Below are positions 3 through 1,670 of a stretch of DNA of 1,683 nt, piece by piece. A program made the position numbers and the translations under genes. Position 1 is the stretch's first letter, and every line of letters begins with the position of its first letter. The stretch lies in the NCBI GenBank assembly GCA_000004985.1, contig GG739347.1. One strand, given 5' to 3'. The notes beneath the pieces are model-generated. The model searched no databases and was not told the DNA's origin. It saw only the letters and a program-made list of their open reading frames with translations. The stretch is from Naegleria gruberi (Eukaryota).

Positions 3-572
3 TCAAAAGTGTTTTCAAAACTGGTAAACAATGGTTATTTAATTACAACGACTTGCTCATTTGGAGGTGTGAGCCCATTGGAATATCTATTACCACGAAT
101 TCATCCAGATCTGATTAGATTGGGCATTAGAGAACGATTACAATGTCATATTAAGAATTGCCAGAAAGAAACCAATTCAATCAATAGTTACGCCAATTCA
201 AAATATCAAGATATCAAAAAGAGAGTTCAGGATTGTGGAGGATTGGCAAATATTGGAGAGGATCTTGCAATTGAATATATGCAGTTTATTGGAAAGGATG
301 GTGGTGTATTGCGTAGATTATCTAAATCTTTGATTAATGACAGAAGTTTTGTGTTGAAAGCTGTTGAGATTTGTCCTGTTGACATTTTCGCAGCTCCTGA
401 TCATTTCCAGAATGATAGAGAGATAGTAATCACAGCATTACGCAATGATGCATGGATATTGGAAAATTTGGAACATGCATTTCAGTACGATGAGGAGATA
501 TTTGAACTTGTTGCACGAACAGATTTGGCAGCTCTAATGTTTGCTTCTGAACGATTAGACAGTTGTAGGTAA
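3..572 (+). CDS. DUF4116-like tandem-repeat protein, probably 5'-partial (frame open to window edge; ORF track lists 9..572 starting at GTG)
   Basis: 189-codon reading frame with no stop from position 3 to TAA at 570-572. The C-terminal about 100 aa form four units of about 25 aa with the DUF4116-like pattern: 'LAIEYMQFIGKDGGVLRRLSKSLINDR / SFVLKAVEICPVDIFAAPDHFQNDR / EIVITALRNDAWILENLEHAFQYDE / EIFELVARTDLAALMFASERLDSCR'. There is no in-frame ATG in the first ~80 codons, and the GTG at position 9 has no Shine-Dalgarno-like sequence upstream, so the start most likely lies upstream of the window. Family assignment is from memory of the DUF4116 consensus, not from a search. Confidence 0.6.
   Translation, partial: SKVFSKLVNNGYLITTTCSFGGVSPLEYLLPRIHPDLIRLGIRERLQCHIKNCQKETNSINSYANSKYQDIKKRVQDCGGLANIGEDLAIEYMQFIGKDGGVLRRLSKSLINDRSFVLKAVEICPVDIFAAPDHFQNDREIVITALRNDAWILENLEHAFQYDEEIFELVARTDLAALMFASERLDSCR
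261..569 (+). repeat. Protein-level tandem repeat array (4 units of about 25 aa, DUF4116-type) inside gene 1
   Basis: Periodic recurrence of [DE]-[IF]-[VF]-x-x-[AV]-[VLA]...A-x-x-x-[LF]-x-x-D in the translation. The units are diverged at the DNA level; the 'gcttctga' (ASE) motif is shared with gene 2 at 1170-1177. Confidence 0.5.
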
Positions 573-593
573 TGGACATTTGTTGCTCTGACC

Positions 594-604
594 AAAAATT
601 TTTT
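594..604. repeat. A5T6 self-complementary tract in the spacer
   Basis: 'ccAAAAATTTTTTaca'. It is an AT-only palindrome with no GC stem. Confidence 0.4.
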
Positions 605-683
605 ACAAGTCTAAAAGGCTTGGCTTGGGGACAACAAAACGGGACATGAAGAAAATTGTTGGAGGACAATGTTATTTCTCAAG

Positions 684-698
684 ATGTTGTTGTTGTTG
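684..698. repeat. Trinucleotide microsatellite ATG(TTG)4, equivalently (GTT)4
   Basis: Direct reading of 'atgttgttgttgttg' at 684-698. It lies in the spacer and encodes the Leu run of a 12-codon mini-ORF. Confidence 0.6.
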
Positions 699-716
699 CA
701 CCAATAGTGAAATCCT

Positions 717-1670
717 GTGTTGGAAAACAACCAAAAAGTGAAGAGAGGTACTTCATTGTTGAAAGTTTGGTTTTTTTTGTTTGATGAAACTAAAGTTTAT
801 TTTGATGAAAGTGTAACGTCTTCTTTCGTGGCGCCAACTAATGTAACGGTTTATTCTCGACTTGTAACATTTTTTAAAATCACAAGCGAAAAATGGCTGG
901 AGTTTCGACTTGGCCAAAAAATTTTTGGGGACAAATTTTATCTACCTACAACTGTCTATGAACGATTGAGGAATGATACTTCTTTTATAATGAAAATGTT
1001 TCGTAAAATTGCACAAGATAGTTCGATGGACCATATGAGCGAAAGAGAAATTGCTATGCGTATGGTCAAGATGAATGGTTTATCTCTTCAGTTTCTCAAT
1101 GAGGAATACAGAGATGATTTCGAAATTGTTACTTGCGCACTGAATAATCATTGTCACTCTCTTGCTTATGCTTCTGAGAGAATTAGAAGTGATCGAGATT
1201 TTATGAAAAAAGCAATTGAGAAGTACAGCGTTGTTTACTCGTATGCTTCGGATGATTTACGAAATAATGATGTTGAACTTGCTTTGATTAGTATAAGGGG
1301 AGGGAATTGGATTCCTGTTGAGCATGAGATGAACAGACAAGTTGTAAAAGAGGCTGTGAAAAAATCAGCATTACAATTGACTAGAGTTCCTGATGAATTA
1401 AAAAGTTGTGCACCATTCATGTTTGAGATTATCAATGAAACCACTGAACCAATTTTGAAATATATTACAAACGAATTGAGATTTTCTCAAGATTTTGTAT
1501 TGGAAGCAATCAGGATAAGTAGCAATAATGTGCTAGATCTTAGGAATGCAGAAATGGATAATAAGGAATTTGCGAAAAAAGTTGCTCAACTAACTGGCTA
1601 CACATGTACATATAGAAACGACCTATATGAAGCAAGAATGGAATACATGTTCCATGGAGCAAAGTGCTAA
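717..1670 (+). CDS. DUF4116-like tandem-repeat protein; 3' end is firm (TAA 1668-1670), start codon uncertain (GTG 717, TTG 756, ATG 990, or upstream exon/frameshift)
   Basis: 318-codon reading frame in the same frame as gene 1. Residues about 80-317 form about nine units of 24-27 aa, for example 'EREIAMRMVKMNGLSLQFLNEEYRDD / FEIVTCALNNHCHSLAYASERIRSDR / DFMKKAIEKYSVVYSYASDDLRNND / ... / DFVLEAIRISSNNVLDLRNAEMDNK'. These carry the recurring D-[FI]-[VM]-x-x-A-[IVL]...L-x-x-A-S-x-x-L-R-x-D signature. Two stops, TAG TGA at 705-710, sit 6 nt upstream. The first in-frame ATG is at 990 (residue 92), but the repeat 'YERLRNDTSFIMKMFRKIAQD' begins upstream of it. Confidence 0.6.
   Translation: MLENNQKVKRGTSLLKVWFFLFDETKVYFDESVTSSFVAPTNVTVYSRLVTFFKITSEKWLEFRLGQKIFGDKFYLPTTVYERLRNDTSFIMKMFRKIAQDSSMDHMSEREIAMRMVKMNGLSLQFLNEEYRDDFEIVTCALNNHCHSLAYASERIRSDRDFMKKAIEKYSVVYSYASDDLRNNDVELALISIRGGNWIPVEHEMNRQVVKEAVKKSALQLTRVPDELKSCAPFMFEIINETTEPILKYITNELRFSQDFVLEAIRISSNNVLDLRNAEMDNKEFAKKVAQLTGYTCTYRNDLYEARMEYMFHGAKC
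771..778. repeat. T8 homopolymer inside the N-terminal coding part of gene 2
   Basis: 'ggttttttttgtttg' with T at 771-778 exactly; codons TGG TTT TTT TTG TTT (W-F-F-L-F). Confidence 0.6.
914..928. repeat. Near-perfect palindrome CC-A6-T5-GG inside gene 2
   Basis: 'ggCCAAAAAATTTTTGGgg' at 914-928; the homopolymer pair lies immediately downstream of an out-of-frame ATG at 893. Confidence 0.4.
954..1667 (+). repeat. Protein-level tandem repeat array (about 9 units of 24-27 aa, DUF4116-type) inside gene 2
   Basis: Recurring 'A..AS..LR.D.efv..A' signature, e.g. LAYASERIRSDRDFMKKAIEK and YSYASDDLRNNDVELALISI. Unit boundaries are approximate. Confidence 0.55.

Follow-up and report, generated by a model that had tools for sequence, protein, structure and literature searches.

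The locus considered here raises a simple question, namely what has separated two open reading frames (ORFs) that look like parts of the same gene. The window, by which we mean the whole stretch of DNA that was analysed, is an entire 1683-bp scaffold of the heterolobosean amoeba Naegleria gruberi (contig GG739347.1), and it carries an ORF at 9-572 and another at 717-1670, both of which match the repeat family DUF4116 (PF13475), with 63.2 and 117.7 bits respectively against a Pfam gathering cutoff of 24.9 bits. The original prediction, made from the sequence before any search, held that the two ORFs share one frame and are the halves of one DUF4116 gene, and in both respects our analysis upheld it. 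It also attributed the break to nonsense mutations or to gene fission, and here our data lead elsewhere: very probably, a transposon of the MITE (miniature inverted-repeat transposable element) type has recently inserted into a coding exon in one of the gene's haplotypes or copies, and was then mis-modelled as an intron followed by an exon.

The frame-3 translation of the interrupted region reads ...LMFASERLDSCR, stop, WTFVALTKNFLQV, stop, KAWLGDNKTGHEENCWRTMLFLKMLLLLHQ, two consecutive stops and NPVLENN..., which confirms the four in-frame stops (TAA at 570-572, TAA at 612-614, TAG at 705-707 and TGA at 708-710). The first ORF does end inside a DUF4116 unit, as had been noticed, since it closes with ASERLDSCR and a stop where ORF2 has ASERIRSDRDF. 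A single DUF4116 gene that is decaying by nonsense mutations or was recently split, with a spacer made of degraded repeats, would agree with these clustered stops, with the shared frame and with the position of the first stop inside a repeat unit. However, four stops in 47 codons are close to the 3.7 or so expected for non-coding DNA (about 0.079 per codon, estimated from base frequencies), a shared frame has a one-in-three chance, and neither the frame nor the stop count is significant alone. The significant feature is the combination of inverted and direct repeats around the stops (Table 1).

The stops at 570, 612, 705 and 708 all fall within a 403-bp element that ends in perfect terminal inverted repeats (TIRs), TAGACAGTTGTAGGTA on the left, and is enclosed by two copies of an 8-bp target-site duplication (TSD), TGAACGAT. 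Scanning the window for an 8-bp direct repeat that encloses inverted-repeat ends returned exactly one structure, with an inverted repeat of 16 nt; among 3000 shuffles that preserved dinucleotides, inverted repeats beside an 8-bp direct repeat were at most 8 nt long, and 10 nt was never reached. The longest inverted repeat of the window is found at the same place (556-583 with 931-958; 28 nt, 82% identity, the outer 16 nt perfect), and the left end of the element aligns with the reverse complement of its right end over about 60 nt when small indels are allowed. The fold predicted for the element pairs its termini, at -59 kcal/mol versus -39.8 +/- 3.8 kcal/mol for shuffled sequences (z = -5.0). 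The interruption therefore extends over 556-966, and not over 540-720 as first proposed; because the element and one copy of the duplication add up to 411 nt (403 + 8 = 3 x 137), both gene halves are left in one frame.

Table 1. Coordinates of the features discussed in the text (positions are those of the 1683-bp window)
Feature	Position	Strand	Remarks
Gene, 5' part	3..555	+	Open at window edge; equals NAEGRDRAFT_59807 residues 84-267, gapless; DUF4116 63.2 bits
Left target-site duplication copy, TGAACGAT	548..555		Adjoins left terminal inverted repeat
Element, 403 bp, in exon	556..958		Inverted repeats, duplication, missing from NAEGRDRAFT_59807 protein, no protein or Pfam relative, paired ends
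Left terminal inverted repeat, TAGACAGTTGTAGGTA	556..571	+	16/16 perfect; includes donor-like AG/GTAATG at 569
Intron of deposited XP_002668083.1 model, 243 nt, GT-AG (GTAATG...GAAAG/T)	569..811	+	Wholly within element
Four in-frame stops	570..710	+	Frame-3 translation
Right terminal inverted repeat	943..958	-	Exact reverse complement of 556-571
Right target-site duplication copy, TGAACGAT	959..966		Identical to 548-555
Gene, 3' part (RNDTSFIMKMF...HGAKC)	967..1670	+	Stop at 1668-1670
Candidate acceptor AG	969..970	+	First AG beyond the right end of the element, which is rich in pyrimidines (TTTTATCTACCTAC...); hypothetical

A second copy of the gene allows the interruption to be compared with an uninterrupted state. 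In protein searches, the window was 100% identical to its own deposited product, XP_002668083.1 (EFC35339.1, 'predicted protein, partial', 474 aa), and about 99% identical to NAEGRDRAFT_59807 (EFC37274.1/XP_002670018.1, UniProt D2W107), a protein of 501 aa encoded on a 218,836-bp scaffold, with 100%-identical local matches for both N. gruberi proteins. A blastn comparison with phage records gave no match, and a prokaryotic or viral origin of the window was dropped upon these Naegleria matches. No further protein at least 90% identical was found in a collection of 15 billion proteins, and because the closest relatives beyond these two copies are only 18-30% identical, the copies are best read as alleles or as a very recent duplicate pair.

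When 556-966 (the element and one duplicate, 411 nt) is excised from the window, a single uninterrupted ORF of 418 codons results, and its alignment with NAEGRDRAFT_59807 (residues 84-501) is free of gaps and has five mismatches. All of these lie outside the insertion (window copy/NAEGRDRAFT_59807: S/Q at the partial first codon on the window edge, then R44/Q, Y161/D, E164/D and R215/H, numbered on the reconstructed protein), as would be expected if the two are haplotypes of one locus or were duplicated very recently. A comparison with orthologous or paralogous loci had been suggested to see whether a single uninterrupted ORF exists, and NAEGRDRAFT_59807, a paralogue or allele, shows just such an ORF: its junction, ...LMFASERL/RNDTSFIMKMF..., is exactly the predicted empty site. 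The true continuation of ASERL is thus RNDTSFIMKMF from position 967, and not the sequence that follows the TAA. In the DNA, the element-free site is predicted to read contiguously as ...GCTTCTGAACGATTGAGGAATGAT..., with a single TGAACGAT.

Excision also restores the interrupted repeat unit. The junction peptide YDEEIFELVARTDLAALMFASERL/RNDTSFIMKMFRKIAQD... matches DUF4116 with 27.3 bits, above the cutoff, over residues 2-37 and across the junction, while the Pfam scan gave no DUF4116 match in the truncated end of ORF1, at the junction of the XP_002668083.1 model or in the element-derived 'exon'. In other parts of the protein, ASERLRNDTSF has counterparts in ASERIRSDRDF, ASDDLRNNDVE and EEYRDDFEI, and the reconstructed protein as a whole scores 173 bits in eight stretches. 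Because the junction unit parallels the other DUF4116 units and the restored unit exceeds the cutoff, the short form appears to be the regular and ancestral one and the long form an insertion. Given the flanking direct repeat, a removal of 411 nt that yields ASERL/RNDTSF can be drawn in 11 registers, and 0 of the 11 have GT/GC-AG or AT-AC ends; the NAEGRDRAFT_59807 junction therefore cannot come from a conventional intron that takes out this DNA, and the 411 nt must be absent from that locus.

The polarity of the change could in principle be reversed, with the 411 nt being ancestral and NAEGRDRAFT_59807 having lost them by microhomology-mediated deletion between the TGAACGATT repeats. A 9-nt direct repeat does flank the difference, and with two copies compared the polarity is not directly observed. 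However, a deletion of this kind does not predict perfect 16-bp inverted repeats immediately inside the direct repeats, and across the junction it is the short form whose DUF4116 unit is regular and exceeds the cutoff, whereas the long form has stops and no family signal, so that we regard this scenario as very unlikely. Nor do we favour an assembly or cloning artefact, i.e. a chimeric or misassembled orphan scaffold, even though the gene continues beyond the left edge of what is a very small scaffold. A precise 8-bp duplication around exact inverted termini, placed within a gene, is not something that chimeras produce, and the four to five amino-acid differences from NAEGRDRAFT_59807 outside the insertion mark a distinct haplotype or copy, for which an orphan scaffold would be the expected assembler product of a haplotype-specific 411-bp indel; an artefact thus seems highly improbable.

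Decay or fission of a single gene is hardest to reconcile with the content of the spacer. The residual repeat signal that had been read into it (WTFVALTKNF aligned with AIEK) was not recovered, as a Pfam search with the stop-masked translation of 573 to about 1000 found no family, even at E<=10. The other half of the unit that was cut is found intact 411 nt downstream, transposon termini and a target duplication bound the interruption, and the stops, at the density of non-coding DNA, lie in sequence that has no counterpart in NAEGRDRAFT_59807. The start of a 'gene 2' at 717 does not hold either: its first 80 or so codons (717-958) belong to the element and coding resumes at 967. Since the first in-frame ATG of ORF2 comes no earlier than about 990, there is no independent eukaryotic gene from 717, and a bacterial-type ORF logic with a GTG start at 717 was rejected because the host is a eukaryote. 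The gapless alignment to NAEGRDRAFT_59807 after excision of 556-966 refutes decay or fission in practice, and we consider it scarcely credible.

The public annotation offers another explanation for the interruption. The join(3..568,812..1667) translates exactly to XP_002668083.1, so that 569-811 could be an ordinary spliceosomal intron and 812-958 part of a genuine exon of the 474-aa protein. This model has GT...AG ends, a length that is a multiple of 3 and an exact reproduction of the deposited protein in its favour, and N. gruberi genes are reported to contain introns in the genome paper. Nevertheless, both the intron and the next 147 nt lie inside the structure of inverted repeats and target duplication. 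Exon 2 opens with these 147 nt of element sequence, and the 49 residues that they encode (VTSSF...TTVY) are missing from the near-identical NAEGRDRAFT_59807 and have no match to DUF4116 or to anything else. A repeat unit that is whole at the empty-site junction is broken at the junction of the model, and the model is not uniquely determined: in-frame GT/GC-AG bridges are possible in 74 ways, of which the deposited intron is one; presumably, this one was chosen by the gene predictor to rescue the ORF. An ordinary intron here is very unlikely indeed, and the deposited model is probably wrong.

The preferred reading, a transposon insertion, would involve the following events. A transposase supplied in trans would have cut the two strands at TGAACGAT, within the S-E-R-L codons, with a stagger of 8 bp, the element with its 16-bp perfect TIRs would have been joined in, and gap repair would have duplicated the 8 bp. 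Read-through from the gene into the element adds D-S-C-R from the terminal repeat before the first stop (...ASERLDSCR); the other stops of the 'spacer' are then non-coding element sequence, and the right 248 nt are open by chance, which gives the apparent start of 'gene 2' at 717. The insertion allele would encode a truncated protein unless the element leaves the RNA, with the intact NAEGRDRAFT_59807 covering the function. Because the repeats are perfect, the duplication is perfect and the two copies differ by presence or absence, the comparison indicates that the insertion is likely to be recent.

As for the coding content of the element, every frame has stops except for an 82-codon tail. No Pfam family was found in its stop-masked translation at E<=10, and its six-frame translation searched against 5.8 billion proteins at E<=10 gave XP_002668083.1 itself as the sole match. 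The tail (711-958, the right 248 nt) is open over 82 codons in the frame of the host gene up to the insertion boundary, and it was rejected as a coding sequence of the element for its lack of homologues and of an in-frame ATG. Besides XP_002668083.1, the one match of this ORF among 1.84 billion representative sequences was to a translated tandem DNA repeat in six weak repeated stretches, which we attribute to chance or low complexity. An origin from a tRNA, a short interspersed nuclear element or a known RNA was likewise rejected, as Rfam at E<=1 returned only SNORD81 (23 bits) and STnc180 (21 bits), both below the cutoff of 50, and the tRNA scan found no tRNA.

The element also has some internal sequence features of its own. 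On its + strand there are five copies of GGACA (574, 629, 642, 664 and 929), many of them embedded in GGGACA or GGGGACAA, and in the 1280 nt outside the element GGACA is found 0 times on the + strand and once on the - strand (372). Five occurrences were reached in 0 of 20,000 shuffles, for a motif that was picked after inspection, and GGACA could be a candidate subterminal motif for transposase binding. A 13-nt perfect inverted pair, CCAAAAATTTTTT and AAAAAATTTTTGG, lies subterminally at 592-604 and 916-928; each arm is nearly palindromic, and the pair belongs to the extended inverted-repeat structure. There is a (GTT)4 microsatellite at 686-698, which reads LLLL or CCCCC in two frames, and a tandem-like direct repeat of 15 nt, TTTTGTTTGATGAAA and TTTATTTTGATGAAA (775-810), with a spacing of 21 nt, the second copy of which stops just short of the acceptor of the deposited model at 811.

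With regard to the class of the transposon, duplications of 8-9 bp also occur in P, Merlin and some Mutator-like elements, and the element could possibly belong to one of these superfamilies. The 8-bp duplication together with the short repeats leads us to label it, tentatively, as hAT-like, unconfirmed. hAT elements have TIRs of 10-25 bp and TSDs of 8 bp (PMC3942097), and the element, with its TSD of 8 bp and perfect TIR of 16 bp, fits both size hallmarks. It resembles MITEs and non-autonomous hAT elements such as maize Ds1, described as an element of about 400 bp of the Ac/Ds family (PMC3260210), in its length of 403 bp, in having no transposase ORF, in its short perfect TIRs with imperfect subterminal similarity, in its 8-bp TSD, in its location inside a gene and in the existence of an element-free copy. 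It differs from them in that neither a cognate transposase nor another copy turned up, in collections without N. gruberi genome DNA. Literature searches gave no account of MITEs, hAT elements or introners in Naegleria.

Several observations weigh against this reading and have to be set beside the evidence above. In metagenome contigs, neither a degenerate 28-mer of both termini nor the paired-TIR pattern detected a second copy of the element, and the pattern occurred 0 times in prokaryote genomes and 0 times in viral contigs; these collections contain no N. gruberi genome DNA and such searches have low power. Repetitiveness, the defining property of a transposon family, is thus unproven for this element. 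The empty site is supported at the protein level, by the predicted NAEGRDRAFT_59807 protein only. The duplication can also be read as 9 bp (TGAACGATT), in which case the termini are offset by one base or asymmetric. The open 82-codon tail appeared in this exact frame and position in 30 of 5000 shuffles (0.6%), and in any frame in 25%, figures obtained post hoc; we treat it as a coincidence, for which the transposon model does not account. Finally, hAT termini follow the consensus 5'-YARNG and Ac-type elements prefer targets of the form nTnnnnAn. The terminus TAGAC agrees with the former at 4 of 5 positions and deviates at the fifth base, and the target TGAACGAT fits the latter with an A at position 7 and has G, not T, at position 2.

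It would also be interesting if the element could be removed from the transcript. An excision of 569-970 (402 nt), from the donor-like site in the left terminal repeat to the candidate acceptor, is in frame and gives ASERL-DSC-RNDTSF, with three additional residues, although the resulting +DSC junction peptide scores 17.7 bits for DUF4116, below the cutoff of 24.9. Maize wx and adh1 alleles carrying Ds or Ds1 are reportedly spliced as pseudo-introns (Wessler and colleagues, 1987-1991). As in those alleles, a small hAT-like element sits in an exon with a donor-like site near its terminus, and the candidate splicing would restore the frame with a few added residues; unlike them, the splicing is hypothetical here and the host is a heterolobosean amoeba and not a plant. 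Splicing of the element from the pre-mRNA with donor 569 and acceptor 970 is a minor possibility, rather unlikely on present evidence, under which the insertion allele would not be null.

A related comparison is with introner elements, transposons by which new spliceosomal introns arise and which are recognised by numerous almost identical copies that serve unrelated genes as introns (Gozashti et al. 2022, PMC9860276). The element shares with them the status of a TIR- and TSD-bearing non-autonomous element in a coding exon, the donor-like AG/GTAATG within its own terminal repeat, a pyrimidine-rich 3' end followed by AG, the possible in-frame excision of 402 nt and an annotation that treats part of it as an intron. 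It differs in copy number, the six-frame protein search having returned XP_002668083.1 only, and in that its candidate acceptor, at 970, lies in the host gene's own sequence and belongs to neither the element nor the duplication. In the species table of the same study, N. gruberi NEG-M has the entry '1 0 0 0' and the introner host Aureococcus '1 1 1 0' (PMC9860276); with the column meanings as we infer them from this table, NEG-M appears to have been screened and found introner-negative.

The host gene itself is a clear member of the DUF4116 repeat proteins, built of units of about 25 residues (x-D-x-x-F-V-L-x-A-V...L-x-Y-A-S-x-x-L-R), with nothing unusual for the family. The ORF1 frame is open from base 3, up to the left edge of the window, and 'gene 1' is therefore a fragment; the left end of the scaffold (1-8) cuts the gene, and NAEGRDRAFT_59807 has 83 more residues at the N-terminus, including a poly-Thr stretch.

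These results have consequences for the annotation as well as for the biology of N. gruberi. The public gene model XP_002668083.1/EFC35339.1 probably contains a spurious intron, 49 transposon-derived residues and four more at the splice junction. More generally, in a eukaryotic scaffold a pair of in-frame ORFs split by stops more often reflects an intron or inserted DNA than the decay of a gene. The perfect termini, the perfect duplication and the presence/absence difference between the two gene copies suggest that N. gruberi NEG-M carries a recently moved cut-and-paste DNA transposon, and the termini TAGACAGTTGTAGGTA provide a handle for finding the element family and its transposase. If the candidate splicing is real, the donor, lying inside the terminal inverted repeat, would be present in every copy of the element in either orientation, and the locus would show a MITE in the act of becoming an intron, while still polymorphic, in Heterolobosea, for which one published screen appears to report no transposon-derived introns. 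The locus is otherwise ordinary mobile-element biology, and only this candidate splicing of a nascent intron would exceed the routine.

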